Assembly: GCA_038087875.1 (NCBI GenBank) | Contig: CM075995.1 | Span: 11,286,001 to 11,346,465, forward strand | DNA length: 60,465 nucleotides | Direction of reading: 5' to 3' | From: Malacoraja senta | Taxonomy: Eukaryota | In this document: piece after piece, positions 25,016 to 59,000 of the stretch | Numbering within the stretch: the first letter of the stretch is position 1 | Layout of the letters: each line of letters starts with the position of its first letter | Made by a program: the position numbers and the translations under genes | Notes under the pieces: generated by a model | What the model was told of the DNA's origin: nothing | Database searches by the model: none | Seen by the model: only the letters and a program-made list of their open reading frames with translations

Positions 25016-25164
25016 GAGGGGTAGTGTTGTAGAGCAGAGGGATCTAGGAGTACAGGTGTATGATTCCTTGAAGGTCGAGTCGCTGGTAGATAAGGTGGTC
25101 AAAAAGGTTTTTGGCACTTTGGCCTTCATCAGTCAGAGTATTGAGTATAGAAGTTGGGAGGTCA

Positions 25165-34235: not shown

Positions 34236-36948
34236 GAACCCCCCCCCTCAAGGGACGGCTCCTGACGTCCCAAAACAAAAGGAAAAAAAAAAACCCACAA
34301 TAAAGAAAATAAACCCAATCCCACGCAGGGTTGGGTGGGAGGAGGGGGGACCGGAGGAGGGCTAATATTCGTCCGAGACATCCATGTCCGCATCCTCCTC
34401 CATAGCATCAGAGGAAAGCTCCGTCTCGTCGTCACTGGGTGCCTCAGACGGAAGAGGGGCAGAGTCTCAGGGGCGGCGATCCCTCTAGGAGTGGCGGACT
34501 TGGACGGCTGGTCGGGATGACGCCGGTGAAACTCCCTGATGAGGGAGGCGTCCAGGATGTGTCGAGCAGGAACCCAGGACCTCTCCTCTGGACCGTAACC
34601 CTCCCAATCGACCAGGTATTGGAGACCCCTCCCGCGACGGCGGGAGCGCAGGAGGCGGTGCACCGTAAAGGCGGGGCCTCCATTGATGAGACGAGGAGGT
34701 GGAGGAGGGACTGCGGGGACCAGGGAGCTCTCCCGGACTGGCTTTACTCTGGACACGTGGAACGTAGGATGGACCCGCATGGAACGAGGCAACTTGAGCC
34801 TCACAGCCACTGGGTTGATGACCTTCTGGATCTCAAAGGGACCGATGAACTTGGGTGCCAACTTCTTGGACTCCACCCTCAAGGGAAGGTCCCGGGTCGA
34901 CAGCCACACCCTCTGGCCCGCGAGGTAGGTGGGGGCCTGGGTGCGGTGACGGTTGGCAGTCGTGGCGTAACGGGCCACGGAGTGGAGAAGAGCTTCCCTG
35001 GCTTGGGTCCACGTCCCGCGGCAGCGACAAATGAAGGCCTGGACGGACGGGCAGGAAACCTCTTTCTCCAGCGCCGGGAACAGTGGAGGCTGGAACCCGT
35101 AGGCACACTGGAAAGGGGAGAGCCCAGTGGCCGAGCTTGTCAGGGTGTTGTGGGCGTACTCCACCCACAACAACTGCTGGGACCAGGAGGAGGGATGCTT
35201 GGACACCATACACCGCAGCGCCGTCTCCATCTCCTGATTCTTCCTTTCAGTTTGGCCGTTGGACTGGGGATGAAATCCGGACGTCAGACTCACGGTGGCC
35301 CCCACAAGCGTGCAGAACTCCCTCCAGAACACAGAGGCAAACTGGGGTCCTCGGTCGGAGACCACATCGACGGGGAGACCATGGAGCCTGAAGACGTGGA
35401 GTAACATGAGCTCGGCAGTTTCCTTGGCTGACGGAAGCTTGAGACATCTTGCTAAATCTATCGACCACGGTCAGGATGGTGGTGTGAGCCCTGGATGGGG
35501 GCAGGCCGGTAACGAAGTCCAGGGAGATGTGGGACCATGGTTGATGGGGTACAGGCAGTGGAAGCAGATGACCCGCAGGAGCTTGGTGTGAGACCTTGTG
35601 CTGGTTGCAAACGGGACAGGCGTTGACAGACTCCCGAGTGTCCTCCTCCAGCGATGCCCACCAGAACCTCCGTAGCACCATCTCCTTGGTCCGCTGAATG
35701 CCGGGATGACAGGTGAGTCGAGAGCTGTGGGCCCACTGAAGGACGTCGGACCGCAGGGCAGAAACCACAAACAGGCGATCAGGAGGGCATGCGCTGGGTC
35801 CCGGCTGGTTCTCCAAGGCCGCCTTGACCCTCTCCTCCACCTCCCAGGTGAGGGAGGCAACCCTGTGCGAGGACGAGAGGATGGTCTTGGGGCCAGAGGC
35901 AGACTCCTCCTTCGCCAAGAACTGTCGAAAGAGGGCATCGGGCTTCACGTTGCGGGACCCAGGACAGTAGGAGAGGGAGTCAAGGCGACCCCTAGGAGGA
36001 GCGGAACCAGGTAGGAGGTCTATGGCGCAGTCATAGGGCCGATGAGGAGGAAGGGAGGTGGCCCTAGACTTGCTAAAAACCTCCCCAAAGTCATGGTACT
36101 CGGCTGGGACCCCCGTCAGATCCGGAGCAGCACTGGAGCAGGTGGCCGGTTGAGGAGCTGAGGCTTCAGGCACACTTGGTGGCAGGAAGGGCTCCAACCC
36201 AAGACGACCCCCGTCCTCCAGTCGATGTTGGGGTTGTGTCGCCGAAGCCAGGGGTAACCCAGGATGAGGGAAAAACGGGGAGACTGGAGGATGTGTAACT
36301 GGATGGTCTCATGGTGGTTACCTGACAGGAGCATGCGCACTGGGACCGTCCGGTGAGAAACAGTCCCCAGGCGATGGCCGTCGAGGGCGTCGGCGGGAAC
36401 AGGTTCAGGCAGGGGAACACAACTGATGCCTAGCTGGTGGGCTAGTTGCTTGTCCATAAGATTAATGTCACAACCAGAGTCTATGAAGGTGGCGAGGGTG
36501 TGAGGACCATCAGACAACAGCAGACGGGCATGACAAAGAGGGCGTCGGACAGAGGAAAGTTCAGAGGTTCGACGTTCCCGTTCCTCGGGGGTGAGACTGG
36601 TGCGACCCACCTGCATGGGTTCGGGTTGCCTCGACGGTTGCCCCAACGAGGGTAGTCCAGTCTCCGGAGGAAAACGAGCTGGGGTGGAAAGCTGGCGGTC
36701 CGCCGGTCCCTGTTGCCTCTCCCGACGTCTCGCCAGGATGCGTCGGTCCAGACGGGTTGTTAGCTCGATAAGCCCATCCAGAGAAGAAGGAAGGACGTGG
36801 GACACCAACTCATCCTTGATATAGTCATTCAAGCCCAGCAAGAAAGCGTCACACTGGGCCGGGGCGTTCCAAGCACTCTCCCGGACCCTGGTGCGAAAGT
36901 CGATGGCGAAGTCAGCGACGCTCTGGTTCCCCTGGCTCAACCCCAGCA
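33882..36948 (-). mobile_element. Chromodomain-bearing Ty3/Gypsy (Sushi-like) LTR retrotransposon, RT/RNase H deleted, 5' end lost
   Basis: Gag C-terminus (EPMQVG), protease (FIDSG), integrase ([32 protein letters not shown]), chromodomain ([15 protein letters not shown]); PPT followed by the 3' LTR TG...CA at 33882-34235. Confidence 0.92.
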
Positions 36949-38195
36949 TATATTTACCAAGGTAATTGGAGTATCATGAATTTCTCCATTAACTATTAAG
37001 TATCTCCCTTCAATGTCTGTTATGGTATTCTTTGCTTTGAATGGTATACCTTTTCTAATAATGATTGACGTACCTCTAGATTTCGAAGTAAATGAAGAAT
37101 GGTATATTTGACCTATCCATTTCGCCCTCAACCTAGCTTGATCATGAGATTTTAGATGAGTTTCTTGTAAGAAGATAATGTCAGAATTGTACAGTTTCAG
37201 CTGAGCTAGTATCTTACGCCTTTTAATAGGTTCGTTAATACCTCTTATATTCCAACTACAGAATGAGACTCCTCCTAGGTTCTTTTGTTTAACATCTTGC
37301 ATTTTGAATAATTATAGCACCTTTAAATCTTGTGGTGCGTCCATATCCCAGGTCTTTGGGTATTGGGGGAACCTTTGAATTTCAAAGTTTTGTTGGCATA
37401 TCCCTTTTACGCTTATCACTAAACACAAAACACAAACATGTGAATTTATGTGATAATTTAAAAAAAATTAAAAAAGTGAAAATACAGTGTCTAAAATAGT
37501 CAACACTGTAACAAGTGGCCCACCTGTAGGTGGGAGAAAACATTGTTTCGACTTCCATTGTTGGTGTTAAACAAATAACTCCGCTCTCTTGGTTAATCAT
37601 AACATATTAGAACGGGGCCTCACATTCAGATATATAATACAATTTTATCCTATATATTTCATTATAACATATCATATATATATCGCAATTTTAGCTACTA
37701 ATTATTAAACAAGTGATTTTAGCTTCAATAATAGTCAACTGTTGGTTGAAGGGGTTAACGAGACGCGCCCCTGGACCTAAGCCAGGTGCTCGTTTCTCAT
37801 CCCCTCCTCCCAGTTATAGATAAGGTTTGAATTTAGTAAAAATTTATATTAGTTTTGTTAGTTCGTTATTTTTTATTTTTATTAGCGTCCGTACCTATTC
37901 TAATCTAACATAGATAACTTGTTAAATTGTTAGGTTGTTAATAGGATCAATTCTTACAATTGGATTTAATATTGTAGTCTATTAAACAAATAATGCTCTG
38001 GTACATTCCATTCACTTCAGTTCAGTTGTTTACTAGTTTTGAACAGAGAGTGTCCTTGATTCGAAATTCCATAGATAACAGTCTAGCCATCCTAAACAAA
38101 ACACTGCTTGGAATGGTTCTAATCTGCCTAACCTCCATTAACTGTGGAATTCTAGTTTAAAAAATAAATAAATAATTAATTCATACTACTAATTT

Positions 38196-39277: not shown

Positions 39278-39973
39278 TTAAAAGTCTTTAAGCCACCGTT
39301 TGAAACATCGCGCTTACTGATGACATCATCAGCCCGGTGACCAGAAGCTCCGGTAAGGTTTTTAATTCAATCCTGACTTATGGACCCGTTTTTACATGAA
39401 AAATCGCGAAATTTTTCGAGAGCGGAGCTAGGTGCACGTCTGTTAATCTAACATGGCGCCACCGGAAGTCCTGATCCCTCTCTAAAGCCTCCACATCCTT
39501 TTTATAATGGGGCAACTAGAACTGCACACAATACACCAAATGCGGCCTATTGTGTTGCCACTTTCAGGGAATTATGGACTTGGACCCCAAGATCTCTCTG
39601 TACATCAATGCTGTTAAGGTCTTGCCACTAATTGTATATTTTCCACTAACATTTAAGATCCCAAAGTGCAACACCTCACACTTGCTCGGATTATACTCCA
39701 TCTGCCTTTTCTCTGTCCATGTCTGTAGCTGGTCTATATCCTACTGTATAATTTGACTATCCAAAGACATGTTGGCTGTTGTCGAATGCCGCTGGAGTGT
39801 GGACAATTTGTGGGGAGAATTAATTGTTGGGAATATTGGTTGGGAAATGGATTGGTTCTGTGAGCAAGCATAAACTGGATGGGTTGAGTGGCCTCCTTCT
39901 CACATCATGTGGAAACAGGTGGAAGCACTGTGGACTGTCGATTACTTTGTAACCAGTTTGTTCTTTGCCCCAG

Positions 39974-40100
39974 GGTCGACCATCAAGGCCAGTAAATCAT
40001 TATCGCCGGACTTCGTGGTGAGAATGTTGCTGAGACGGCCAAAGTTGCACATGTCTCTGGACCTCCTTCCCTCCAGGCCACAGTGCAGAGGGGTCTTCCA
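39974..40100 (+). pseudogene. Truncated copy 3 of the GPT2-like ATG exon
   Basis: Acceptor and ATG (40024) present; same CR1 junction as copy 1. Confidence 0.8.
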
Positions 40101-42571
40101 GAGGGGTAGTGTTGTAGAGCAGAGGGATCTAGGAGTACAGGTGTATGATTCCTTGAAGGTCGAGTCGCTGGTAGATAAGGTGGTCAAAAAGGTTTTGGGC
40201 ACTTTGGCCTTCATCAGTCAGCGTATTGAGTATAGAAGTTGGGAGGTCATAATGTGTAGGAAAGAATTGCAGGCTGGTTCAAATCAAAGGTAGACACAAA
40301 AGGCATGAGTAACTGAGCGGGACAGGTAGCATCTATGGAGATAAGGAATGGAAGACATTTCAGGTTGAGACCCGCTCGACCTGAAACGTCACCCATTATT
40401 TCTCTCCAGAAATGCTGTCAGTTACTCCAGCATTTTGTGTCTAGTTGGGAGGGCATGTTGCAGTTGTGTAAGACGTTGGTGAGACGACATTTAAAATATT
40501 GTGTTCAGTTCTGGGCACCATGTTATAGGAAAGATTTTGTCAAGCTAGAAAGGGTTCAGAAAAGATTGACGAGGATGTTGCCAGGACGAGAGGGTGTGAG
40601 CTATTGGGAGAGGTTGAGTAGGCTGGGTCTCTATTCCTTGGAGCGCAGGAGGATGAGGGGTGATCTTATAGAGGTGTATAAAATCATGAGAGGAATAGAT
40701 TGGGTAGATGCACAGAGTCTTTTGCCCAGAGTAGGGGAATCGAGGATCAGAGGACATAGGGTCAAGGTGAAGGGGAAAAGATTTAATAGGAATCCGAGGG
40801 GTAACTTTTTGACACAAAGGGTGCTGGGTGTATGGAACAAGCTGCCAGAGTAGGTTGTTGAGGTTGGGACTATCTAACGTTTAAGAAACAGTTAGACAGC
40901 TACATGGATAGGACAGGTTTGGCGGGATATGGAACAAGCGCAGGCAGGTGGGACTAGTGCAGCTGGGACATGTTGGCAGGTTTGGCCGAAGGGCCTGTTT
41001 CCACACTATATCACTGCGACTCTATGATCACACCAACGCCACTAATTCCTCAGGCAATGAAGGAAGCTTGGCATGTCTTCAATGACTTTCACCAATTTCT
41101 ACAGGTGTACCTGTCAGAAAGCAACATGTCAGGATGCATCACAGCTCTGCCCTAGAAATTGCAGAGAGTTGTGGATGTCGCCCAGCCCATTACACAGACC
41201 AGACTCCCCACCATTGACTGCATCTACACCACGCTGCTTCTGGAGAGCAGCCAACATAATCAAGAACCACTCACATTCCCTCTTCTCCCTCTCCAGACAG
41301 GCAGAAGAAACAAAAGCTTGAAAGCACATACTACCAGATTCAGGATAATCTTCCATGCTGTTATCAGACAACTGAAAGTTTCCACATAAACTAGAGTGCT
41401 GTCCCGATCTCCCAACCTACTTCATTGAAGATCTTGCACCTTTCCTCTGTAACTCTAACACTATAATACATATTCTGCATTCTGGTATTTCTCTCCTTTC
41501 ACTATTTGTTGTACTTGTTTGTGGCTTGAATGTACTCATGTACAGTATGATTTGACTGGATAGCTCACAGACAAAGCTTTTCACTGTAACTGGTATTAAT
41601 ACCAATACCAAGTGATCTCAATGTTCAGGATATCTTTATTTGCACACATTCTCCACAGATTTTCAGTCTTCTGTCTCGAGTGGGGGTAGAAATTGAACTC
41701 AGTACCCTCTGTAAATGTGGTCCGGATACTGGCACTGATTTGCTGCTTGTGAAACTTGTAGTGTGAAAAGTGTGAAAGAGTTTAATCTATCACACTGTTC
41801 ACACAGTCTACCCTATCTGTGCCTCTCATAATTTTAAATCGTTCTCTCACGTCTCCCAATATCCTCTGACATTCCAGAGAAAACAATTCAAATTCATCCA
41901 ATCTCTCCCCGCAGTTAATACTGTTTAATCCAGACAGCATTCCCGTAACCCTTTTCTGGTCCCTCTCTAAAGCCTCCACATCTTTTTATCATCCAGCCAG
42001 CATTCCCGTAACCCTTTTCTGATCCCTCTCTAAAGCCTCCACATCCTTTTTATAATGGAACAACTAGAACTGCACACAATACACCAAATGCGGTCTATTG
42101 TGTTGCCACTTTCAGGGAATTATGGACTTGGACCCCAAGATTTCTCTGTACATCAATGCTGTTAAGGTCTTGCCACTAATTGTATATTTTCCACTAACAT
42201 TTAAGATCCCAAAGTGCAACACCTCACACTTGCTCGGATTATACTCCATCTGCCTTTTCTCTGTCCATGTCTGTAACTGGTCTATATCCTACTGTATAAT
42301 TTGACTACCCAAAGACATGTTGGCTGTTGTCGAATGCCGCTGGTGTGTGGACAATTTGTGGGGAGAATTATTTGTTGGGAATATTGGTAGGGAAATGGAT
42401 CGGTTCTGTGAGCAAGCATAAACTGGATGGGTTGAGTGGCCTCCTTCTCACATCATGTGGAAACAGGTGGCAGCACTGTGGACTGTCGATTACTTTGTAA
42501 CCAGTTTGGTCTTTGCCCCAGGGTCGACCATCAAGGCCAGTAAATCATTATCGCCGGACTTCGTGGTGAGA

Positions 42572-42796
42572 ATGTTGCTGAGACGGCCAAAGTTGCACAT
42601 GTCACTGGACCTCCTTCCCTCCTGGCCACAGTGCAGAGGGGTCTTCCACCTGGGGAAGACATCTGAACTGAAAGCCGCAAGGGGGACCTGGCAGTGGCGA
42701 GGGTTCGCTGTGTTCCTGCGCCTGGAGATGGAGCACACTCCCTTCACAGCACGACTGCTTCAGAAAGGCACGGAGATGAGGCAGGAACGGCAGCAG
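42572..42796 (+). CDS. GPT2: Alanine aminotransferase 2-like, first coding exon (exon starts ~42522)
   Basis: Acceptor TTTGCCCCAG|, ATG at 42572, phase-0 donor CAG|GTGAGT; C-terminal EMEHTPFTARLLQKGTEMRQERQQ aligns loosely with GPT2 [23 protein letters not shown]; Arg-rich N-terminus resembles a mitochondrial presequence. Confidence 0.7.
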
Positions 42797-44440
42797 GTGA
42801 GTGAGCTCCCCCCCTCCCCCCTGCCCCTCCTCCCCCATTACACCCCCCCACCCGTCCCACCCATCAGGAGACAGCTTCCCAATCGGGACATGAGTGGCCA
42901 TCGGAATGGGCATGTTGATCACCTGCTGGTGGGAGGACAGTTTGAGCCTGATGGGCCAGAAGTCAGTCATATAGGATGAAAACAGGCTCTTCGGCACAAC
43001 GTCCCTGCTGAGCAGGATGCCCAATTTAAGTTTGCCTCATTTGCCTGCGTTTGACCCATATCCAAGAGTATCAAGTGTTCAATTGTCATATGTATCAAAA
43101 ACAAAACAATGAAATTCTTACTTGCAACAACTGGTCTGTAAACACAATACTCAGAGATTACACAATAAGCAAAAAAAGGTCAATAAATTCAAAAATGCCT
43201 GAAGTCCCTAAACCTTTCCTATCATGTACCTGTCGAAAAGTTTTAAAAATGTTGTAGTATGCTTCAACTAGTTCTTCTGGCAGCTTGTTCCAGATAAAAA
43301 ACTTAACCCTCAGATTCTTTCCCCTCTAATCTTTAATCCATGACCTCTGGGTTCTTCATTCCCCTACCCTGCATAAAAGACTCTGTGCATTCACCCTATC
43401 TATTCCACTCATAATTTCATACACCTCTCTAAGATCATCCCTCAGCCTCCTGCACTCCAAACAATAATGTCCTCACCTGATTCACAGTAGCAGCACAGTG
43501 GCGCAACAGTACAGTTGCTGTCTTACAGTGCCAGAGACCTGGCTTCGATCCTGACTACAAGTGGTGTCTGTACAAAGTTTGCAAGTTCTCCCTGTGAGCA
43601 TGGGTTTTCCCCGGGAGTTCCGGTTTCCTCCCACATTCCAAAGATGTGCAAGTTTATAGTTAAATTGACTTCCATAAATTGTTCCTCATGTGTAGGATAT
43701 ATCTAGTGTATGGGTGATTACTGGTCATGGACTCAGTGGGCCAAAGGGTCTGTTACCACGCTGTATCTCTAAACTAAACTGTCCAATCTGTCCAATACCG
43801 CTTGGGCAGTTTGCACCCCAGCGGTATGAACATTGACTTCTCTAATTTCAGGTGGTCCTTACTTTCTCCTCCCCTTCTCAGCTCTCCCACAGCCCTCTGG
43901 CTCCACCTCTTCCTTGCTTCCTCCCCCACTCCCCCACCCCCCCACCCCCCACCCCCCCCCTCACATCAGTCGGAGGAAAGGTTTCAACCCGAAACGTTGC
44001 CTATTTCCTTCGCTCCATAGATGCTGCCTCACCCGCTGAGTTTCTCCAGCATTTTTGTCTACCTTCTGTCCAATCTATAGCTCAGGATCTTGAAACTTGG
44101 CAACATCCTTGTAAATCTCTCTGTGCCCTTTCCAGCTCAATAGCATCTTTCCTATTGCAGGGTGACCAAAACTGAACACAATATCCCAGGTGCAGTCTCC
44201 CAACATTTTCTGATACTAGCTCTGCTCAAGGAAGACTTCACCCACAGCTCCTACCATGGAAAGGCCTGGTATAGAGTCATAGTGAATGCGTGCAGAATCA
44301 GGCCTATCAGCTCCATGCTGACCACCGTGCCTACCTACACTAATCAGATATGTCTGTATTAATTCCAGATCCCTCTCAAATGTTGTAACTCTTTCCGCTT
44401 CCATCACCTCCTCCAGCAGCTCCAGATACCAACCACTGTG

Positions 44441-44906
44441 TTCTTTATTCTTTGGAGCGCAGAAGGTTAAGAGGGGACTTGATAGAGGTCTTTAAAATTA
44501 TGAGCGGGTTAGACAGAGTGGACGTGGATAAGCTTTTCCCATTGAGAGTAGGGAAGATTCAAACAAGGGGACATGACTTGAGAATTAAGGGACAGAAGTT
44601 TAGGGGGAACATTAGGGGGAACTTCTTTACTCAGAGAGTGGTAGCTGTGTGGAATGAGCTTCCAGTGGAAGTGGTGGAGGCAGGTTCGATGTTATCCTTT
44701 AAAAATAGATTGGATGGGTATATGGACGGGAAAGGAATGGAGGGTTATGGTCTGAGTGCAGGTAGATGGGACTAGGGGGAAGTATTTTATTTTTAATTAA
44801 AAAAAAAAAAAAATTAAAAAAAAAAAAATTTAAATGTTCGGCACGGACTTGAAGGGCCGAGATGGCCTGTTTCCGTGCTGTTATGGTTATATGGTTATAT
44901 GGTTAT
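44441..44906 (+). mobile_element. 5'-truncated CR1 3' end
   Basis: ERRRLRGDLIEVFK...GRWD* followed by a (TATGGTTA)n tail. Confidence 0.9.
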
Positions 44907-45444
44907 AAATCTATCCTCAGATCTCATTTAAACCTCCTATCTCTCACCTTAAACCTTTCAAAATGCAGCCCTTGAACTTTTTATCTGCACTTTCTGTGTA
45001 AATATAACACTATAATGCTGTAACTCTGCTCTCTGGCACTTTTCTCTTTGCACTACCTGTTGTACTTGGGTATGGCTTGATTGTACACATGCTTGTTATG
45101 CTTTGACCGGGTGGCATGCAAGCAAAGTTTCCCACTGTATCTTGGTATAGGTGACAATAATAACCAATATTTGTAGCAATTTCAACAGTGATAGCAATAC
45201 TGATACGACGATGGGCTGCTAAGGGCCAAATGCTGCACCCCTAGTCCTGGCCCCCTCCCTGAGCCTCTCTGCCCCTCTGGCCAGTGACCTGGGGGTATTT
45301 ATCTGCTAGTCTCTGTCCTCCAGCCCCACTGTCTGCCTAGAGCACAGAGGCCAATGCAGAGCATCACAATCCTACCACCGGGGCAGCAGCTCGACGGGCC
45401 GAGTGGCACAGCGGCCAATCCATGACTAACCTTTCTTCATGCAG

Positions 45445-45534
45445 TCCCAAGGTTGGAGGTCGACCGTCCCAGAGGTCGTGGGGCTCGGAGATGTCCAGGG
45501 CGCCGGGCAACAGCCAATCACCTTCCTGCGACAG
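45445..45534 (+). CDS. GPT2: Alanine aminotransferase 2-like, coding exon 2 (90 bp)
   Basis: GACTAAC branch point, CAG acceptor, CAG|GTAAGG donor; SQGWRSTVPEVVGLGDVQGAGQQPITFLRQ versus GPT2 ...NIGDAQAMGQQPITFLRQ. Confidence 0.9.
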
Positions 45535-46456
45535 GTAAGGTCAAGGGTCAATACCGTGGTGGGGAGAAGCAAAGTCCCGCAGGTGCGGGGAATCCGTAAA
45601 CAATGGCAGGATCCACTGGGATGGACCGGGCTTGATAGATCTTCAGATATTTGTGGGATCGAGGGACTGGAGGAATGGATTGCTGGGATCTTGCTGACTG
45701 ACCAGATAGCTTTGACGGGCTGAATGGGCTTGACTCACTCCTAGTCCTTTTGTTCTGGTTTCAGTTCCCATCTGGACAGCTGAGGGCATTGAATACAGAA
45801 GGGTGCAGCTCAAGAATAGGCCCTTCGGTCCACAATATCCATGCCGAACATGATACCAAGTTAACCTTATCTCATCTGCCTGCACATGATCCATATCCCT
45901 CCATTTCCATCTGCCTATTTAAAAGCCTCTTAAGCACCACTATTATATCTGCCTCCACCCTCACTCCTGGCAGTGCTCCTCTAATCTTAAACTATACACT
46001 CTAGTCTTTGACTTTTCTACCCTGGGGAAAACAATGTAAGTGTGTCCAACCTCTCCTTATAGCTAATACCCTCTAATAGAAACATAGAATAGAAAATAGG
46101 TGCAGGAGGAGGCCATTTGACCCTTCATTGTGATCATGGCTGATCATCCACAATCAGTATCCCGTGCCTGCCTTCTCCCCATATCCCTCAATCCAGGCAT
46201 CATTCTGGTAAACCTCCTCTGCACCCTCTCCAAAGCCTCTTCGCCCTTCAGGACGACAAGAACTGCACACAACATATGTTGATACACCCTTTTCCAGTTG
46301 ATCTAGCCATTCAACCCTCGACATCCCCTCTCTGGGAGTTCCTGGTATGGAGCATGAGCAGGGGGTAAGAGCTGTTACTTGTTGAGGGTGTGGGTGGCGG
46401 GGGGCAGGGGTGAAGAGTGCCGGTCCGGGAACTCAAAGCCCCTCTCCTTGCCACAG

Positions 46457-46565
46457 GTTACCGCCATCAGCACCTACCCAAGACTGCTCGATCACCCAGC
46501 CCTGCCCCTCGACGCCAAGCAGAGGGCTCGAGAAATCCTGGCCAACTGTGCGGGCAATAGCATTG
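46457..46565 (+). CDS. GPT2: Alanine aminotransferase 2-like, coding exon 3 (109 bp)
   Basis: CCACAG acceptor, G|GTGGGT donor; [36 protein letters not shown](G) versus GPT2 [37 protein letters not shown]. Confidence 0.92.
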
Positions 46566-46609
46566 GTGGGTGTCGGTGATAGGGTGAGGATGGCGACTGG
46601 TGGAAGGAA

Positions 46610-46985
46610 GGAAAATGAGGGAGAGAGGGGAATGTGGGTGTGGGGGAGGGATAGGAGGGGGGAGGTAGAGGAAGAGGGAGGGAGAAGAGGGAGGGAGAAG
46701 GGGAGGGAGGGAGAGGAGGAGGGAGGGAGGATGGAGGGCGCAGGGGAGGAGGGAGTGAGAAGAGGAGAGGAGAGAGGCAGATGAGGAGGGAAGGAGAGGA
46801 GGGACGAGGAAGAGGGAGGGAGGAGGAGGGAGTGAGCGGAGGAGGTGAAGGGATGGAGAGGAGGAGGGATGACAGAAAAGAGGAGGGAGGGAGAGAAGGA
46901 GGGAGGGCGGGAGGGACAATGGAGGGAGAGGAGGGAATGAGTGAGGGGAGGAGGAGGAGGAGGGAGAGGTGGAGGGAGAGAGGAT
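46610..46985 (+). repeat. Polypurine (GA-rich) low-complexity tract
   Basis: Nearly all G and A; source of spurious Pro/Ser/Leu-rich ORFs. Confidence 0.9.
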
Positions 46986-47744
46986 AAGTTACTACGTCCA
47001 ACACAATGGATGTCACGGTTCCATGAGACCATCCTATCAACAGCCCTGAGCCCTGGGCATGTGCTAACCTAGAACACATAACAGGCCCTTCCGCTTGCAA
47101 TCCCCATGCAGAGCATAATGCCAAGTAACTATACCTCCCATAATCTTAGAACATAAAACAGTAGGTAACAGGTTCTTCAACCTAGAATGTCGGTGTTGAA
47201 CATGATGCCAAGATAAACCAATCTCCTCTGCCTACACGTGATCCATATCCCTCCATTCCCTGCATATCCATGTGCCTATCTGAAAGCATTTTAAACACCA
47301 CTACTGTATCTGCCTCCACCACTGTCCCTGGCGGTGCATTCTAAGCAACCACCACTCGCTATGGAAAAAAACACCTTTGCCTCTCAAAATACTTTTATCA
47401 AGTCTCCCCTCAACATTCGACACTTCAGAGAAAACAATCCAAGTTAATCCAACCTCTCCTTACATCTAATACTTTCTAAACCAAGCAGCATCCTGGAAAA
47501 CTGCTTCTGCACCCTTTCCAAAATCTCCGCATCTTTCCAGTAATGGGGCAACCAGAACTGCATGCAATACACCATATGCAGCCTGACCAAGGTCAGTAAA
47601 ACCACATCATGATTTTGTGACTCTTCTACCCGATGCCCCCACCAATGAAGGCAAGCATACCATTTCCACCCTGGGAATGAGGTTCACACTGTCCATCATT
47701 TTGTAAACTTCTATCAGGTCTCCCCTCAACATCCACAGCTCCAG

Positions 47745-50700
47745 AGAAACATAGAAACATAGAAACATAGAAATTAGGTGCAGGAGTAGGCCATTCGGCC
47801 CTTCAAGCCTGCACCGCCATTCAATATGATCATGGCTGATCATCCAACTCAGTATCCCGTACCTGCCTTCTCTCCATACCCTCTGATCCCTTTAGCCACA
47901 AGGGCCACATCTAACTCCCTCTTAAATATAGCCAATTAACTGGCCTCGACTACCCTCTGTGGCAGAGAGTTCCAGAGATTCACCATTCTCTGTGTGAAAA
48001 AAGTTCTTCTCATCTCGGTTTTAAAGGATTTCCCCCTTATCCTTAAGCTGTGACCCCTTGTCCTGGACTTCCCCAACATCGGGAGCAATCTTCCTGCATC
48101 TAGCCTGTCCAACCCCTTAAGAATTTTGTAAGTTTCTATAAGATCCCCTCTCAATCTCCTAAATTCTAGAGGGTATAAACCAAGTCTATCCAGTCTTTCT
48201 TCATAAGACAGTCCTGACATCCCAGGAATCAGTCTGGTGAACCTTCTCTGCACTCCCTCTATGGCAACAATGTCCTTCCTCAGATTTGGAGACCAAAACT
48301 GTACACAATACTCCAGGTGTGGTCTCACCAAGACCCTGTACAACTGCAGTAGAACCTCCCTGCTCCTATACTCAAATCCTTTTGCTATGAAAGCTAACAT
48401 ACCATTCGCTTTCTTCACTGCTTGCTGCACCTGCATGCCTACTTTCAATGACTGGTGTACCATGACACCCAGGTCTCGCTGCATCTCCCCTTTTCCTAGT
48501 CGGCCACCATTTAGATAATAGTCTGCTTTCCTGTTTTTGCCACCAAAATGGATAACCTCACATTTATCCACATTATACTGCATCTGCCAAACATTTGCCC
48601 ACTCACCCAGCCTATCCAAGTCACCTTGCAGTCTCCTAGCATCCTCCTCACAGCTAACACTGCCCCCCCAGCTTAGTGTCATCTGCAAACTTGGAGATAT
48701 TGCCTTCAAATCCCTCATCCAGATCATTAATATATATTGTAAATAGCTGGGGTCCCAGCACTGAGCCTTGCGGTACCCCACTAGTCACTGCCTGCCATTG
48801 TGCCTGCCGTTTACTCCCACTCTTTGCTTCCTGTTTGCCAGCCAGTTCTCTATCCACATCAATACTGAACCCCCAATGCCATGTGCTTTAAGTTTGTATA
48901 CTAATCTCTTATGTGGGACCTTGTCGAAAGCCTTCTGGAAGTCCAGATACAACACATCCACTGGTTCTCCCCTATCCACGCTACTAGTTACATCCTCGAA
49001 AAATTCTATAAGATTCGTCAGACATGATTCACCTTTCGTAAATCCATGCTGACTTTGTCCAATGATTTCACCACTTTCCAAATGTGCTGCTATCCCATCT
49101 TTAATAACTGACTCTAGCAGTTTCCCCACTATCGATGTTAGACTAACTGGTCTGTAATTCCCCGTTTTCTCTCTCCCTCCCTTCTTAAAAAGTGGGGTTA
49201 CGTTTGCTACCCGCCAATCCTCAGGAACTACTCCAGAATCTAAAGAGTTTTGAAAGATTATTACTAATGCATCCACTATTTCTGGAGCTACTTCCTTAAG
49301 TACTCTGGGATGCAGCCTATCTGGCCCTGGGGATTTATCGGCCTTTAATCCATTCAATTTACCCAACACCACTTCCCGACTAACCTGGATTTCACTCAAT
49401 TCCTCCGGTCCCCTGCTATTTCCGGCAGATTATTTATGTCTTCCTTAGTGAAGACGGAACCAAAGTAATTATTCAATTGGTCCGCCATATCCTTGTTCCC
49501 CATGATCAACTCACCTGTTTCTGACTGCAAGGGACCTACATTTGTTTTAACTAATCTCTTTCTTTTCACATATCTATAAAACCCTTTGCAGTAAATTTTT
49601 ATGTTCCCTGCCAGTTTTCTTTCATAATCTATTTTTCCTTTCCTAATTAAGCCCTTTGTCCTCCTCTGCTGGTCTCTGAATTTCTCCCAGTCCTCCGGTA
49701 TGCTGCTTTTTCTGGCTAATTTGTACGCATCATCCTTCGCTTTGATACCATCCCTGATTTCCCTTGTTATCCACGGATGCACAACCTTCCCTGATTTATT
49801 CTTTTGCCAAACTGGGATGAACAATTTTTGTAGTTCATCCATGCAGTCTTTAAATGTCTTCCATTGCATATCCACCGTCAACCCTTTTAGAATTAATTGC
49901 CGGTCAATCTTGGCCAATTCACGTCTCATACCCTCAAAGTTACCTTTCTTTAAGTTCAGAACCATTAAAATATCTTTATACGCGGATGATATATTATTGT
50001 ATATTACAAAACCTCAAATCACTATACCAAATATATTAAATTTAATTGAAGACTTCGGATCTTTTTCTGGATATAGAATAAATTGGAATAAAAGTGAAAT
50101 TATGTCAATAAAACCGAAAGATTCAACACATCTTTTAAAATTCCCTTTTAAAATAGCTACAGAAAAATTTAAATATTTGGGAATCGAAATTACCAGAACA
50201 TATCAAGGTATGTTCAGGGCAAATTTTGACCCCCTACTTAATAAACTGAATACATTAATTAAATTCTGGAAAACGCTCCCGATGTCTTTAATAGGCCGAA
50301 TAAACGCAATAAAAATGATCTTTTTACCACAAATTTTATACCTATTTCAATCAATTCCTATATACTTACCTAAGAAGTTTTTTAAAAAACTCGACTCAGA
50401 TATCACTAATTTTATATGGGACTATAAATCACATAGAATACAAAAAACCCATCTGAATAAACCTAAAGTATTGGGGGGTCTAGCACTACCTAATTTTATG
50501 TATTATTATTGGTCAGTAAATATTAAAAACATGATTCAACTGATGGATAACTCCGCCCAGCAAGTAGACTGGATTGTAATGGAGAAAGAGGATTGCTCCT
50601 CTAGAAACATTGGAGCGATCCTCCTCTCTCCAATGAAATTGAATAACATAAACTATAATAAGAACCCAATTATTCATAGTACAATCCGTATTTGGAAACA

Positions 50701-53700
50701 AATAAAACAAAATTTAAAATTAAGAAACTTATCACTTTTATTACCTATAGTCAATAACCCTTCGTTTAGTCCTTCTATTATAGATAAAGCTTATACACAA
50801 TGGGATAGACTAGGAATTAAAACGCTTGGTGACTTGTATGAAACTGGAAAATTACTTTCATTTCAACAATTACAAATAAAATATAAACTCGGAAATAATC
50901 AATATTTTAAATACTTTCAAATATGCGACTATTTGAAAAAATATACAAAAGATCATCATAATAACCCAGCAGATGTACTGGACGAGGCAATGCAGATAAA
51001 AGCGGAATCAGCAAACTTAATATCATATTTGTATAATATTATCTTAAATGCACAAATACCATCTACGGAGGATATCAGAAGAGACTGGGAACAAGAGTTA
51101 GCTATTAAAATTTCAAAGGAAAGTTGGAATGAATACTTATTAAAAGTGCATAAATGCTCGATTAATGTAAGACACACTTTAATACAATTTAAAATTTTAC
51201 ATAGATTATATTATTCGAAAACTAAAATTCATAAAATGTTCCCAAACGTATCATCTATTTGTGATAAATGTCAATCCCAAGAAGCAACTATAGCGCACTC
51301 ATTTGTCTTCTGTACAAAAATTCAAAAATTTTGGAATGAAATTTTTGAAATCTTTACAAAGTTATTTAAAACAAGACTGATACCCAAAGCAGAATGGATT
51401 ATCTTCGGAATAACGGAAGATGATCCAGAACTAAATGTGTTTCAAAATAAATTAATGGACTATGGGTTAATAACTGGAAAAAAGCTAATTCTAAAATTTT
51501 GGAAGAAGGCTCCAATACCAACTATAAATATGTGGATTTCAAATATGTTTGAAACATTACACCTTGAAGAGATAAGACTCCTCCTAGCAGGTAAACCAGA
51601 TCACTTCCACCTGATGTGGTCTGCATTTATAGAATTATTACAAACATAGGGTGCAAAAGTACTTTAAAAAAAATAAAAAATTGAGGTCAGGTAAGGGGGG
51701 GTGATAGTTGAAGAGTTGGTATGTCCTATTTACGTGATGCTCAAAAAAAAAAAAAAAACATTTGTTTCTCTTTTTTTCTCTTTCTCTTTTCTTTTCTTAG
51801 GGCCTATTTCTTAACTCTTTTTCTTTTTGTTTTAATTTCGCTCTTATAGGGTCTTCGTCCTTTTTTGTTGTTACATTTTCTACACTTTTCTACACTTGCA
51901 CTTTTTCCTTCACTTTCTTCTCTCTTTCAATCTTTTCTTTTTCTAGTGTAAAAAAATAAATAAAGGAGTACATTAATTGTAAGAAGATATAAATGACGAG
52001 TATTAATGTATGTGGTTGTAATGTAATGTACTTCTAATAAATAAAAATTAAAAAAAAAATAAAAAAATAAAAACAAATAAAAAAAAATTAATTGCCGGTC
52101 AATCTTGGCCAATTCACGTCTCATACCCTCAAAGTTACCTTTCTTTAAGTTCAGAACCATTGTTTCTGAATTAACAATGTCACTCTCCATCCTAATGAAG
52201 AACTCAACCATATTATGGTCATCTTGCCCAAGGGGGCACGTACAACAAGACTGCTAACTAACCCTTCCTCATTACTCAATACCCAGTCTAAAATAGCCTG
52301 CTCTCACGTTGGTTCCTCTACATGTTGATTTAGATAACTATCCCGCATACATTCCAAGAAATCCTCTTCCTCAGCACCCCTGCCAATTTGATTCACCCAA
52401 TCTATATGTAGATTGAAGTCACCCATTATAACTGTTATGCCTTTGTCGCACGCATTTCTAATTTCCTGTTTGATACCATCTCCAACTTCACTACTACTGT
52501 TAGGTGGCCTGTACACAACACCCACCAGTGTTTTCTGCCCCTTAGTGTTTCGCAGCTCTACCCATACCGATTCCACATCCTCGAAACTAATGTCCTTCCT
52601 TTCCATTGCGTTAATCTCCTCTCTAATCAGCAATGCTACCCCACCTCCTTTTCCTTTCTCTCTATCCCTCCTGAATATTGAATATCCCTGGATGTTCAGC
52701 TCCCAACCTTGGTCACCCTGGAGCCATGTCTCCGTGATCCCAACTATATCATAGTCATTAATAGCTATCTGCACATTCAACTCATCCACCTTATTACGAA
52801 TGCTCCTTGCATTGAGACACAAAGCCTTCAGGCTTGTTTCTACAACACTCTTACCCCTTATACAATTATGTTGAAAAGTGGCCCTTTTTGATTTTTGCCC
52901 TGGATTTGTCTGCCTGCCACTTTTACTTTTCACCTTGCTACCTATTGCTTCTACCCTCATTTTACACCCCTCTGTCTCTACGCTCGCACATTTAAGAAAC
53001 CCTTTCCCTTTAACTCCATCCTCCACTATCCCATTCGACACCCCACCCCCTTATTCAGTTTAAAACCACCCGTGTAGCAGTGGCAAACCTGCCTGCCAGA
53101 ATGCTGGTCCCACACCTGTTAAGATGCAATCCGTCCCTTTTGTACAGTTCCCCCCTTACCCCAAAACAGATCCCAGTGATCTAAGAATCTAAATCCCTGC
53201 CCCGTGCACCAGTTCCTCAGCCACATATTCAGGTCCCGTATCTCCCTGTTCCTGCTCTCGCCCAGCACGAGGAACTAGAAGCAAACCGGAGATAACAACC
53301 CTGGAGGTCCTGCTTTTCAGCATTTTTTCGAGCTCTCTAAAGTCACGCTGCAGAATATTCATCCCCTTCTTTCCGACATCGTTTGTGCCGACATGCACTA
53401 CCACTTCCGGATGTTCACCTTCGCCCTTGAGGATTTTCTGCACTCTGTCCGTGACATCCTGGATCCTGGCACCAGGAAGGCAGCACACCATCCTCGCATC
53501 CCGTCTGTTGCCGCAGAAACCCCTGTCCGTACTTCTCACAATGGAGTCTCCCACTACAATGGCGTTGCCTGCCTTAGGCCTTTTTGGTTTTGGCTCAACA
53601 GCCCTATTCGCATCGCAAGCCAGTCCGCCGCTCAGTGTTAAAACGTCTTCTGTCCCAACAACTTCTAAGCGGGTGAACCTGTTCAGAAGAGGTACAACAC

Positions 53701-54240
53701 CCGGGGACGTTTGCATTCCATGCTTCCCTCCCTTTCTCACCGTCTCCCACCTTGTCTCTTCCAGTACCTTAGGTGTAACAATCGTACTGTAGGACTTGTC
53801 GAGGAACGACTCCGTTTCTCGGACGAACCGGAGGTCATCCACTTACTTCTCCAGTTCCCCAACACGGCCCTTCAGGAGCTCTACCTGGATGCACTTCTCG
53901 CATTTGTAGCAGCCAGAGGCACCAGCGGTGTCCTTGACCTCCCACATACTGCAAGCATCGCACTGAATCAGCTTGCCTGACATCTCCTTCTTTCGTCTCT
54001 ACCTCTCCAGCGTATTGCATGGTCTCCTCTCCGAAGACTCTCGAGCCAATGACTCACACTTTACTCACAGGGCACCTCCCTCACAAGGGCACCTCCCTCA
54101 CAAGGCCGCTCCCTCACTGCCACTCGCTAAGAGCCGTCTTGCTTAAATTGACGGATAAATTGCCTGATTTACCAATTTACAAACCAAATTCCTCAGTTAT
54201 CAACTGTTTTCCTGGCACTGACTCACTTCTCTCCTCCCAT
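47745..54240 (-). mobile_element. Near-full-length CR1 LINE ((TTTCTATG)n-tail subfamily) in a GPT2-like intron, split by an L1
   Basis: Tail at 47745-47771; ORF2 pieces at 47936-49965 and 52304-53041; ORF1 with Cys cluster and esterase at 53189-54000; 5'UTR to ~54240. Confidence 0.93.
49967..52085 (+). mobile_element. 5'-truncated L1, same family as 28840-39470
   Basis: Open ORF2 from KISLYADD to the stop at 51649, including CDKC...HSFVFC; AATAAA and A-rich tail; flanked by a 76-bp direct repeat. Confidence 0.95.
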
Positions 54241-54713
54241 TCGGGCTAGAGCCAATCAGTCGTATCTCTTGCTAATCTCCTGCTGCTGTTGCTCCCAAAT
54301 CTACAGCAGTTCTGAGTAAAGTCTGCCTGTGCTTGGCTTCTACTTTTCAACAAAGACAATCAAAGTTTGCCCCTCTCCTTGTGGAAGACCCATCTCTGAT
54401 GCCGCGGTGCATTTCTGCAGCTCACTGGGTATAAGTTACCACTGCTGGTAACCTGCAGCTGATAATGTGGACCCAGCTAGATTTATTCCCTCTGCTGGTT
54501 CACCATTACCACTCTGCTGGCTCTGATCTCAAGAATCCTCGTTAGGTTTATTAAAGCAGATTTTACGTTCTTTAAACCATTGCCTTCACCCTCCACATTA
54601 AAAAGTCCCTATTCCCACATCCAGCAGGATGGACAGTGTGAGCTGATGGCAGTATCATGTGTAAAGAGGAGGGGTGGTCTCGGGCAGAGCACTGACTTCT
54701 CTCTGCATTTCAG

Positions 54714-54847
54714 GTGCTTACGGGGAGTCGGAAGGGATCGGTGCTGTCAGACGCTCAGTGGCCCAATACCTGGAGCAGCGAGATGCAGGTGTCCCAGCGG
54801 ATCCGAGCAACGTTTACCTGGTGAACGGGACATCAAATGCCATGAGT
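54714..54847 (+). CDS. GPT2: Alanine aminotransferase 2-like, coding exon 4 (134 bp)
   Basis: CTGAC branch point, TTTCAG acceptor, phase 1 matches the previous exon; (G)AYGESEGIGAVRRSVAQYLEQRDAGVPADPSNVYLVNGTSNAMS versus GPT2 [44 protein letters not shown]; weak GTACAT donor. Confidence 0.9.
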
Positions 54848-55304
54848 GTACATAACAGCAGGGAATGTTCCAAACAGGGGCAGCAGGAGAAACCTTTCAG
54901 CCCCTCAACAGTCACACAGCAAAGAAACAGGCCCTTCAGCCCAACCCCTCCATGCTGACCAAGAAACCCCCATGAATTTCCTCCCATTCACCTACATTCA
55001 GTCCGTATTCCCCTAAACCTTTCCTATCCATGTACCTGTCCAATTGTCTTTTAAATGTTTAATCGGGGCACTGCAGAAGGTTTACAAAAGAAGACAGAAT
55101 GTCGGAGTAGCTCAGCTAAGATCTGGCAGCTGGTTTCACATACCCACCTCCTCTCTGTGGAAAGGTTGCCCCTCAGCTTAAGGGGAAATCTTTCCCCTCT
55201 CACCTTAAACCAATGCCCTCCAGTTCTTGATTCCCCTATCCTGGGTAAAAGATTGCATTTATCCCTATCCCTCACATGATCTTATTTGTCTATATACCCC
55301 TCAG

Positions 55305-55590
55305 GTCATTTAAGACTGAGGTGAGAAAAAACCTTTTCACCCAGAGAGTTGTGAATTTATGGAATTCCCTGCCACAGAGGGCAGTGGAGGCCAAATCACT
55401 GGATGGATTTAAGAGAGAGTTAGATAGAGCTCGAGGGGCTAGTGGAGTCAAGGGATATGGGGAGAAGGCAGGCACAAGGTTATTGATAGGGGACGATCAG
55501 CCATGATCATAATGAATGGCAGTGCTGGCTCGAAGGGCCGAATGGCCTTCTCCTGCACCTATTTTCTATGTTTCTATGTTTCTATGTTTC
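55305..55590 (+). mobile_element. CR1 3' fragment with (TTTCTATG)n tail, inside an older CR1 remnant
   Basis: FTQRVVNLWNSLP and a tail at 55562-55590. Confidence 0.85.
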
Positions 55591-55866
55591 AGCCTCCTGC
55601 GCTCAAAGTCCTAGACTGCCCAACCTCTCCCGATAGCTCAGGTCCTCGAATCCTGGCAATTCCTTTGTAAATCTTCTCTGCTCTTACTCCTCAGGTCCTC
55701 TTTAAAGCACCGTCCCTCATCCTCAAGCTTTGCTCCTTTTTAAAAAACACCAACACAATGGGATAAAAGACTTCTACCCTAACTCAAAATGTTATAATGT
55801 AGAACAGAACAGCGCAGGCTGCTCAACCCACAATGTCCATGCCAAACATGAGACCAAGCTAAATTA

Positions 55867-58800
55867 ATAACCATATAACCATATAAAAATTTCAGCATGG
55901 AAACAGGCCATCTCGGCCCCTCTGCCGAACACTTTTTCTCCCCTAGTCCCATCTACCTGCACTCAGACCATAACCCTCCTTTCCTTTCTCGTCCATATAC
56001 CCATCCAATCTATTTTTAAATGATAAAATCGAACCTGCCTCCATCACTTCCACTGGAAGCGCATTCCACACATCTACCACTCTCTGAGTAAAGAAGTTCC
56101 CCCTAATGTTACCCCTAAAATTCTTTCCCTTAAATCTCATGTCCTTTTGTTTGAATCTTCCCTCCTCTCAACAGGAAAACCTTACCACGTCAAATCTGTC
56201 TATCCCTCTATCATTTTAAAGACCTCTATCAAGTCCCCCCTTAACCTTCTGCACTCCAAAGAATAAAGACCTAACTTGTTCAGCCTTTCTCTGTAATTTA
56301 GTTGCTGAAACCCAGGCAACATACTCGTAAATCTCCTCTGTACTCTCTCTATTTTGTTGACATCCTTCCTATAATTAGGCGACCAAAATTGTACTCCATA
56401 CTCCAGAATTGGCCTCACCAATGCCTTGTACAATTTTAACATTACATCCCAACTTCTATACTCAATGCTCTGATTTATAAAGGCCAGCACACCAAATGCT
56501 TTCTTTACCACCCTATCTACATGAGATTCCACCTTCAGGGAACTATGCACAGTTATTCCGAGATCCCTCTGTTCAACTGCATTCCTCAATTCGCTACCAT
56601 TTACCATGTACGTCCTATTTTGATTTGTCCTGCCAAGATGTAGCACCTCACCTTTATCAGCATTAAACTCCATCTGCCATCTTTCAGCCCACTCTTCCAA
56701 ATGGCCTAAATCTCTCTGTAGACTTTGAAAATCTACTTCATTATCCACAACACCACCTATTTTAGTATCATCTGCATACTTACTAATCCAATTTACCACA
56801 CCATCATCCAGATCATTGATGTACATGACAAACAACAGTGGACCCAACACAGACCCCTGAGGCACCCCACTAGTCACCGGCCTCCAACCTGACAAACAGC
56901 CATCCACCATTACTCTCTGGCATCTCCCATTCAGCCACTGTTGAATCCATCTTGCTACTCCACCATTAATACCCAACAATTGAAACTGCTAAACCAACCT
57001 TCCATGAGGAACCTTGTCAAAGGCCTTACTGAAGTCCATATAGACAACATCCACTGCTTTACCCTCATCAATTTCCCTAGTAACCTCTTCATAAAATTCA
57101 AGAAGGTTAGTCAAACATAACCTTCTAGGCACAAATCCATGTTGACTGTTCTTAATCAGACCCTGTTTATCCAGATGCTTATATATATTATCCCTAAGTA
57201 TCCTTTCTATTAATTTGCCCACAACTGACGTCAAACTAACAGGTCTATAATTGCTAGGTTTACTCTTAGAACCCTTTTTACACAATGGAACAACATGCGC
57301 AGTGCGCCAATCCTCCGGAGCTATTCCCGTTTCTAATGACATTTGAAATATTTCTGTCATAGCCCCTGCTATTTCTACACTAACTTCCCTCAATGTCCTA
57401 GGAAATATCCTGTCAGGACCTGGAGACTTATCCGTTTTCATATTTTTCAAACGTGTCCACACTTCCTCTTCTTTGAATCTCATCGTTTCCATTGCTACTC
57501 TGCTCGTTACCATTACCTCACATAATTCAATATCCTTCTCCTTGGTGAATACCGAAGAAAATAAATTGTTCAATATCTCCCCCATCTCTTTTGGCTCCTC
57601 AGATAGCTGTCCACCCTGACTCTCTAATGGACCAATTTTATTCCTTGTTATCCTTTTGCTATTAATATAGCTGTAGAAACCCTTTGGGTTTACTTACCCC
57701 TTACTTGCCAAAGCAACCTCATATCTTCTTTTAGCTTTTCTAATTTCTTTCTTAATATTATTTTTAAATTCTTTATACTCCTGCAGCACCTCATTTACTC
57801 CACGCCGCCTATAATTATTGTAGATCTCTCTCTTTTTCCGAACCAAGTGTCCAATTTCCCTTGAAAACCATAGCTCTTTCCAATTTTTACTATTTCCTTT
57901 CAACCGAACAGGGACATAAAGATTCTGTACTCTTGAAAATTTCACCTTTAAATGTCCTCCATTTCTGCCTAGTCCAAGAATCAACTATAGCACATTCTTT
58001 TGTCTTTTGTATAAAAATTCAAAAATTTTGGAATGAAACTTTTGAAATTTTCTCTAATTATTTAAAATAAAATGAAACCGAATGCAGAACTGATTATTTT
58101 TTGAAAAACAGAAGCAAGTTTGGAGCTGACTGCGTTTCAAAGGAGTTTTCTTAGTTATGGTTTATTAACGGCAAAAAAACTGATATTGAAATTTTGGAAA
58201 AATGCCCCTACGCCAACAATAAAAATGTGGGACTTCTAATATGTCGGAATTGTTACATTTAGAAGATATGAGATTCTCCTAGCATGTAAACAAGACCAAT
58301 TGCAAAAGATTTGGTCGCCATATATCGACTTATTACAAACATAGGGTGCAACAAAATGTTGATAATAAATGGTTTTAGGACCTGGCGAGGGGTGAGTAAA
58401 GATAAGAAGTAGGTGCATCCCTTTCATATTGTCCTATCTTATTTTCTTTTTTCTCTTTTTTCTTTTCTTCTTTAACTACTTCTTGTGGTTTAGGTTCATA
58501 AGAGTGTTCCTGGACCACTTTCATTCACTCACTGACTATCTTTGCTAGCTCTTTCAATCCTTTTTTCTATTAAAGTTGAAAAACAGAAGTGGTACAAGAA
58601 TTGTATAAAATTATGTTATGTTATTGCAGATAACTGTAATGTAAAATACTTCTAATAAAAAAAAAAAAATAAAAAAAAATGTCCTCTTCTACATCCTTCC
58701 CATAAAACACCATGTCCCAATTCACTCCTTTTAAATCCTTTTGCATCTCCTCAAAGTTAGCCTTTCTCCAGTCAAAAATCTCAACCTTAGGTCCAGTTCT

Positions 58801-59000
58801 GACCCTCTCCATAATTATATTGAAACTAATGGTATTGTGATCACTGGACCCAAAGTGCTCCCCAACGCATACCTCCGCCACCTGCCCTGTCTCATTTCTT
58901 AACAGGTCCAGCACTGCCCCTTCTCTTGTAGGTACCTCTATGTATTGCTGCAAAAAACTATCCTGCACACATTTTACAAACTCCAAACCATCCAGCCTTT
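55867..59000 (-). mobile_element. CR1 LINE ORF2 ((TATGGTTA)n-tail subfamily), split by an L1 fragment
   Basis: ORFs at 55943-57984 and 58621-58986 closely match the element at 7736-14150. Confidence 0.92.
57967..58677 (+). mobile_element. Short 5'-truncated L1 3' end
   Basis: QESTIAHSFVFCIKIQKFW remnant, T-rich 3'UTR, AATAAA and poly(A); AAATGTCCTC duplicated at 57950-57959 and 58677-58686. Confidence 0.85.

Follow-up and report, generated by a model that had tools for sequence, protein, structure and literature searches.

A skate gene of a fast-evolving alanine aminotransferase-like clade with predicted loss of catalysis

We analysed a window of 60,465 nucleotides from Malacoraja senta (assembly GCA_038087875.1, contig CM075995.1, positions 11,286,001 to 11,346,465 of the forward strand), which contains the first part of a gene related to the vertebrate alanine aminotransferases (ALT; genes GPT, also called GPT1, and GPT2). 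On the plus strand, four exons bordered by AG and GT are found at 42522-42796 (exon A), 45445-45534 (exon B), 46457-46565 (exon C) and 54714-54847 (exon D). From the candidate ATG at 42572 they can be joined to 558 nt, or 186 codons, free of stops and with phases 0, 0, 1, 0, as had been described in the original prediction. The coding part of exon A (42572-42796) comprises 75 codons, and its extent 5′ of the ATG is probably set by the AG at 42520-42521. The product of this exon starts with about 56 residues of basic leader, of low confidence, and continues with a remodelled segment in place of the YAVRG motif. Exon B (90 bp) keeps Gly96 and the QPITFLRQ stretch and has lost Asn94 and Ile95, exon C (109 bp) encodes a helical N-terminal segment, and exon D (134 bp) carries Tyr150, a trans-acting phosphate ligand, together with Ser188. 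We take the sizes of 90, 109 and 134 bp to be those of the GPT2 exons, and the exon borders presumably fall at the GPT2 positions. Donor sites were scored by their matches, out of nine, to the U1-complement consensus, which gave 8, 8, 5 and 4 for exons A to D; a better-scoring in-frame GT is found at 54820, inside exon D. The GC content at third codon positions (GC3) is 0.69 in the exons, compared with 0.42-0.50 in the introns.

Exon D alone matches human ALT2 (3IHJ) with E=2e-9, and its single database match among four candidates was XP_055522038.1 of Leucoraja erinacea, a protein of 522 aa annotated as 'alanine aminotransferase 1-like'. The spliced product is identical to this protein at 165 of 186 residues (88.7%) and begins at the same Met, whereas identity to canonical elasmobranch or mammalian GPT2 is only 39-41%. 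Since exon D by itself finds 3IHJ and the spliced product matches the Leucoraja protein from a shared start, the exons are not a chance assembly. Identity over exon A is 81% (residues 1-78 of XP_055522038.1), the exon C protein is the same in both species, and all insertions and deletions between them are whole codons, so that the 186 codons are without frameshift. Exon B has two extra codons at its 5′ end and a deletion of two codons relative to Leucoraja, and its size of 90 bp is thus a coincidence of gain and loss. The replacement of the conserved motifs by EHTPFTA, GLGD and NGTS was found as originally described, with two corrections: GLGD is partly the two-codon deletion (Leucoraja reads ILLGD), and NGTS is a mild change, as canonical insect ALTs can read NG-S too and Ser188 is retained.

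No further exon was found in 54848-60465 by tblastn with four query proteins. The window covers residues 1-191; the other two thirds or so of the protein, among them the cofactor site, lie beyond it and were read only through the Leucoraja orthologue. The leader has a net charge of +4 and a moment of 0.38, within the range of GPT2 and GPT1 leaders; it could be a mitochondrial signal, for which these values are weakly suggestive. Gene models from stingray and catshark start later than the skate leader. There was no RNA run among the sequencing runs matching exon A, which has no bearing on expression.

Database searches returned three sets of proteins, namely canonical GPT2, canonical GPT1 and divergent ALT-like proteins. 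The latter come from rays, sharks, lungfish, frogs, salamanders, birds, reedfish, bowfin and teleosts, and no mammalian member was among the matches listed. The original prediction had linked the gene to the urea-centred metabolism of elasmobranchs; a clade including birds, amphibians and teleosts does not bear this out, and a urea-specific or skate-only novelty was rejected on the same distribution. Both a FastTree phylogeny of 121 rows and a quick mixture-model tree of 33 rows made the window product sister to Leucoraja (support 100) within a divergent subclade of elasmobranchs (support 100). A careful tree of 27 rows, from which the partial window row and a very long bird row were left out, joined all 11 divergent rows at 89/98 and the elasmobranch subclade at 100/99. 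The internal order of the divergent clade largely follows the species tree.

The label 'GPT2-like', taken as a statement of descent, had to be given up. Grouping with elasmobranch GPT2 was rejected by the approximately unbiased (AU) test (p=0.00012), and the divergent gene and GPT2 lie on different contigs in 6/6 elasmobranchs where the contigs of both are chromosome-scale by their length (Hypanus, Hemitrygon, two Mobula, Narcine and S. canicula; Mustelus was left out, as its copy sits on a 0.64-Mb scaffold). GPT1 is the nearest canonical group in the quick 33-row tree (Shimodaira-Hasegawa-like approximate likelihood ratio test, 93), and the GPT1 subtree is unresolved in the 27-row tree. Sisterhood to GPT1 is not proven by this, because most GPT1-like states in the divergent set are ancestral, the columns diagnostic for GPT1 and GPT2 showing the GPT1 state in outgroups as well. 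The divergent gene and GPT1 are located on one contig in Spea, Lissotriton and Albula and not in Chanos, Diretmus and O. masou. In the frog Phyllobates, a gene model fuses the N-terminal part of the divergent gene to GPT1, which indicates that the two genes adjoin. The divergent gene probably arose next to GPT (GPT1) by local duplication. In Knipowitschia, Diretmus and Pogonophryne, gene models fuse two tandem divergent copies, which suggests further local duplication in teleosts. Judged from these sequence comparisons, we are confident that the window gene is the skate-type orthologue of a third, fast-evolving ALT-like clade spread across jawed vertebrates.

Residue roles were adopted from the E. 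coli AlaA structure, as given in the available text of PMC4094517, and mapped onto GPT2 numbering by alignment; here a 26-residue tag offset was inferred, and Tyr62 and Arg65 are mapped on a weak alignment segment. The window itself keeps Gly96, Tyr150 and Ser188, and the YAVRG motif with Tyr62 and Arg65 is replaced. In the Leucoraja orthologue, Lys341, which binds pyridoxal 5′-phosphate (PLP), is Ser, Asp299 is Lys, Tyr302 is His, Asn271 is Ile and Tyr216 is Gly; Tyr62 and Arg65 have no match, and Gly96, Tyr150, Ser188, Ser340, Arg350 and Arg494 are kept. Compared with human ALT2, XP_055522038.1 reads SVSSG for STSKG, AKEGH for ADEVY and NPGIP for NPGNP and has the same HFR. Of the two residues singled out for a check in the original prediction, the PLP lysine and the C-terminal Arg, the first is thus lost and the second kept, as far as the orthologue tells.

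Retention was counted in 27 divergent proteins, one per species and without additional isoforms; four fused gene models were left out, as were a sturgeon model of partial length, one further Oncorhynchus row and unnamed teleost-like ones. Since the 27 chosen rows are related by descent, the counts are descriptive. The substrate side is nearly empty, with Arg65 kept in 0/23, Asn94 and Ile95 in 0/26 each, Gln215 in 0/27 and Tyr62 in 1/21. Residues on the cofactor side are kept to varying degrees (Tyr216 6/27, Tyr302 13/27, Asn271 15/27, Lys341 16/27, Asp299 22/27), and most of those contacting phosphate or carboxylate are kept almost throughout (Tyr150, Ser338 and Arg350 26/27 each, Ser340 27/27, Arg494 24/27). 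The median retention over 166 near-invariant positions is 78%. No deviation at Lys341, Asp299, Tyr302, Asn271 or Tyr216 was seen in 35 canonical proteins. The PLP lysine is absent in 11 of the 27 divergent proteins, its presence or absence requires at least four changes on the tree, and the replacing residues differ (S, N, R, C). Most of the active site, with Lys341, Asp299 and Tyr302 among the residues kept, is preserved in frogs (11/13), reedfish (10/11) and salmonids with pike (10/13). Among elasmobranchs, Lys341 is kept in sharks and Mobula and lost in Narcine, Hemitrygon and Hypanus, and six derived residues are common to the shark and ray members. Bird members show the reverse of the skate pattern, in that they keep Lys341 and lose Arg494 and Tyr302.

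The expectation of an intact-looking, fast-evolving paralogue with a remodelled substrate side was borne out, the divergent gene evolving 3.4-4.2 times faster than GPT2 in 6/6 species pairs. The Leucoraja protein matches GPT2 at 101/156 near-invariant columns compared with 100/284 others (p=3e-9), a bias that points to purifying selection on the fold. An AlphaFold2 model of XP_055522038.1, computed from an input alignment of 48 sequences that is rich in canonical ALTs and therefore biased toward the ALT fold, reached a predicted local distance difference test score (pLDDT) of 84.8, with residues 1-56 disordered (pLDDT<50). In Foldseek the model best matches 3IHJ (E=5.5e-47, template modelling scores 0.79/0.89) and 3TCM. 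The PF00155 profile gives 53.5 bits for XP_055522038.1 at a cut-off of 19.7 and 12.9 bits, under the cut-off, for the window's exon D alone. As modelled, the orthologue is an intact fold-type-I protein with the class I/II aminotransferase fold. Frames open through the C-terminal end were found in the gene models of nine elasmobranch species, both sharks and rays; those of Narcine, S. canicula and Mustelus show local irregularities. RefSeq gives several isoforms for each locus in Hemitrygon, Hypanus and S. torazame, which, given how such models are built, suggests transcript support there.

Exon A is represented by four copies in the window, a fact missed in the original prediction. Two 5′ half copies on the plus strand (24889-25015 and 39974-40100) keep the acceptor and the ATG and end at the same junction, the first running into repeat sequence there. 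A whole copy (27449-27702, plus strand) has both splice sites intact and a 21-nt in-frame deletion, which removes seven codons at the start of the remodelled segment equivalent to YAVRG. Together with the intact proximal copy at 42522-42796, acceptor and ATG are kept in 4/4 copies. These copies belong to a direct 3.7-kb duplication on the plus strand, of which the first unit (24765-28512) holds one half and one whole exon A and the second (39850-43605) one half and the intact exon A. The two units differ by 49 substitutions in 3730 aligned nt (1.3%) and by seven insertions or deletions, and they may represent a real recent duplication, gene conversion or an assembly artefact in which two haplotypes were joined. 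Within the 254 nt of the 27449-27702 copy there are 0 substitutions, where 3.6 are expected from the flanks (p ~0.03, one post-hoc test).

The intron between exons C and D (46566-54713, plus strand, 8148 bp) consists mostly of remnants of long interspersed nuclear elements (LINE). Here an antisense LINE with reverse transcriptase and endonuclease pieces (47746-53900) is interrupted by the 3′ fragment of a sense-strand LINE (about 49966-52067), with a repeat of the flanking host sequence at either end of the insert. The remainder of the window is largely made up of LINE and long terminal repeat (LTR) retrotransposon remnants, with no other host gene seen; 11 of the 13 long frames scanned matched Pfam, all of them with mobile-element types. 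Between the duplicated blocks lies an LTR retrotransposon remnant (34139-36973, minus strand) with protease, integrase, SH3 and chromo matches and apparently without a reverse transcriptase frame. More LINE reverse transcriptase frames are found at 8372-10531 and 2245-3033 (plus strand) and at 31221-32741 and 56200-57693 (minus strand). Related LINE copies inside the window share 87-95% identity, which indicates recent activity.

On balance we lean towards a maintained, non-catalytic protein of a third ALT-like clade. The original prediction had left open altered specificity or a non-catalytic role; for skates the second is favoured, because an orthologue of 89% identity is without the PLP lysine and four further cofactor residues. 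That the gene product is non-catalytic in Malacoraja senta itself is likely on this comparison, and it is nearly as likely that the gene is still functional. In the proposed course of events, the ancestor of the clade would first have lost Tyr62, Arg65, Asn94, Ile95 and Gln215, which recognise 2-oxoglutarate/glutamate, and with them would have ceased to be an ALT. Later, several lineages would independently have lost the cofactor chemistry. In skates this would concern Lys341, which forms the Schiff base, Asp299 at the pyridine N1, Tyr302 and Asn271 at O3′ and Tyr216, which stacks on the ring; with these five gone, no transamination should be possible, as predicted from the residues. The protein would nevertheless have been kept folded, with the phosphate set Tyr150, Ser338, Ser340 and Arg350 and the α-carboxylate ligand Arg494, and with such a pocket kept in a folded protein the most likely job would be a non-catalytic one. 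By non-covalent binding of a phosphorylated B6 vitamer or of a phospho-amino-acid, the folded dimer might act as a buffer or sensor; alternatively, the protein might pair with an active GPT/GPT2 subunit, Tyr150 serving the partner's site in trans. We put forward such a specific ligand or partner role tentatively. It is doubtful that the whole chain holds, namely a third ALT gene about as old as the split between sharks and bony fish that lost glutamate recognition and then, several times, the lysine, and that became in skates a sensor or store or a regulatory subunit of GPT/GPT2.

Several observations weigh against a maintained, non-catalytic protein. The loss of Lys341 in Malacoraja senta is inferred from its relative, as the exon of the lysine lies beyond the window. 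Ser188 is a phosphate ligand too and is kept in only 5/27 proteins (10/27 counting Thr). Counted protein by protein, the 13 listed active-site positions show no significant excess of losses over other near-invariant positions; Leucoraja keeps 6/12 active-site residues against 97/153 others (p=0.27), only 1/28 rows falls below 0.05, and the pattern fits a general relaxation as well. In favour of our reading, by contrast, the full residue set is retained in true ALTs of 26-44% identity, according to the available text of PMC4094517, so that its loss here at the rate of the scaffold already indicates that catalysis is not being protected. The same text states that in human ALT2 other residues may fill the plug role of the Tyr15 type, and the function of Tyr62 and Arg65 is therefore less sure in vertebrates. 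Differences between the window product and Leucoraja do not measurably avoid conserved columns (3/43 vs 8/87, p=0.48), a comparison of low power.

Part of this would also be expected of a decaying gene, dispensable and relaxed throughout and here perhaps already a pseudogene or mis-spliced, which we regard as improbable. Active-site loss that matches scaffold loss and a rate 3.4-4.2 times that of GPT2 speak for decay, as does the lack of a mammal among the divergent matches listed. At the locus itself, the exon D donor AGT/GTACAT (54845-54853) is weak, with a score attained by about 55% of the 3008 plus-strand GT sites in the window, and reading through it leads to a stop after 37 intron codons. 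Upstream of the intact exon A, three damaged copies lie among LINE and LTR insertions; a transcript joining the two whole copies would meet a stop at codon 84. Against decay stand the models with frames open to the C-terminus in nine elasmobranch species, the strong bias toward keeping near-invariant columns, the 186 window codons without stop or frameshift and with whole-codon indels, and the elevated GC3 of the exons.

Separate GPT1 duplicates, or GPT1 itself in rays and ground sharks, might instead have degenerated in parallel and been joined by long-branch attraction. The divergent clade indeed consists of long branches and is not starred in the 27-row tree, its support is 89/98, and the lungfish is oddly placed. 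The phylogeny that the original prediction had called for set the window product beside Leucoraja and apart from GPT2, and it was less decisive for GPT1: grouping with shark canonical GPT1, as an elasmobranch-only GPT1 duplicate, was rejected only marginally (AU p=0.049). No elasmobranch with both GPT1 and the divergent gene appeared in the best 120 of 2232 matches, canonical GPT1 being listed in four carpet sharks and the divergent gene in nine rays, skates and ground sharks; this may be sampling, and the absences are weak, as a shark GPT1 ranked 119th of those 120. The mixture model still recovers the clade, its internal order tracks vertebrate phylogeny, losses fall on the same positions in every lineage, shark and ray members have the six derived residues in common, and amphibians and Albula hold both genes on one contig. 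Parallel degeneration is thus held to be quite unlikely. In its simplest form, a degenerate elasmobranch GPT1 in sharks that have no other, it was rejected, since carpet sharks carry a canonical GPT1 (XP_072432598.1) with every active-site motif kept; for rays and catsharks it may hold. Should the separate occurrence of GPT1 and the divergent gene among elasmobranchs prove genuine, GPT2 may be the only source of ALT activity in rays.

An active aminotransferase with substrates other than 2-oxoglutarate/glutamate, for which the retained Arg494, the near-intact sites of frogs, reedfish, salmonids and pike and the Lys341 of sharks and Mobula could be cited, probably describes the clade ancestor and the lineages that keep the lysine, but is very unlikely for Malacoraja senta, whose relative of 89% identity has Ser 341, Lys 299, His 302, Ile 271 and Gly 216, with Narcine, Hemitrygon and Hypanus also without the lysine and all these residues kept in ALTs only 26-44% alike (available text of PMC4094517).

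Vertebrate ALT is treated as a two-gene family, and databases label the third gene 'alanine aminotransferase 1/2-like' or 'alanine transaminase', though 11 of the 27 sampled proteins are without the catalytic lysine. Transcriptome studies of fish, amphibians, birds and elasmobranchs may therefore count a non-enzyme as ALT. A literature search, with most subscription journals and supplements outside its coverage, found no description of a third ALT paralogue, and in its available text a family-wide survey of aminotransferases mentions only human AlaAT1 and AlaAT2 (10.1101/2024.03.19.585368). The genes themselves are already known as automatic ALT-like annotations; what is added here is a variant within a known family, whose function is putative. 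Active sites within the clade range from near-intact (frogs, salmonids, reedfish) through half-lost (sharks, Mobula) to dead (skate, Narcine, salamanders, elopomorphs). If our interpretation is true, it provides a natural enzyme-to-pseudoenzyme series inside one orthologous group, and this gradation makes the path, and what selection keeps along it, directly testable.

The closest known relative is XP_055522038.1, which has the same start and the same remodelled N-terminus; the window product has three codons fewer in exon A and two fewer in exon B. This entry is an automatic annotation and silent on the missing catalytic residues. With vertebrate GPT2/ALT2 (3IHJ) the gene shares the fold, PF00155, Gly96, Tyr150, Arg350 and Arg494; it differs by an identity of 41%, by its location on another chromosome and by the orthologue's lack of Lys341, Asp299, Tyr302, Asn271, Tyr216, Tyr62 and Arg65. 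In amphibians and Albula the divergent gene is linked to vertebrate GPT/ALT1 (teleost gpt2l; XP_072432598.1 of a carpet shark), whereas canonical GPT1 keeps every active-site motif. Antizyme inhibitor, which resembles ornithine decarboxylase, and plant PDX1.2 are pseudoenzymes of PLP pathways that are kept as binding or regulatory partners; they have other folds, and no partner is known for the window protein. A further parallel is Alt2 of Saccharomyces cerevisiae, an ALT paralogue without alanine transaminase activity and of unknown function according to the available text of PMC5960717. There, as stated in the same text, the catalytic residues are kept, whereas for the skate protein inactivity is predicted from their loss.

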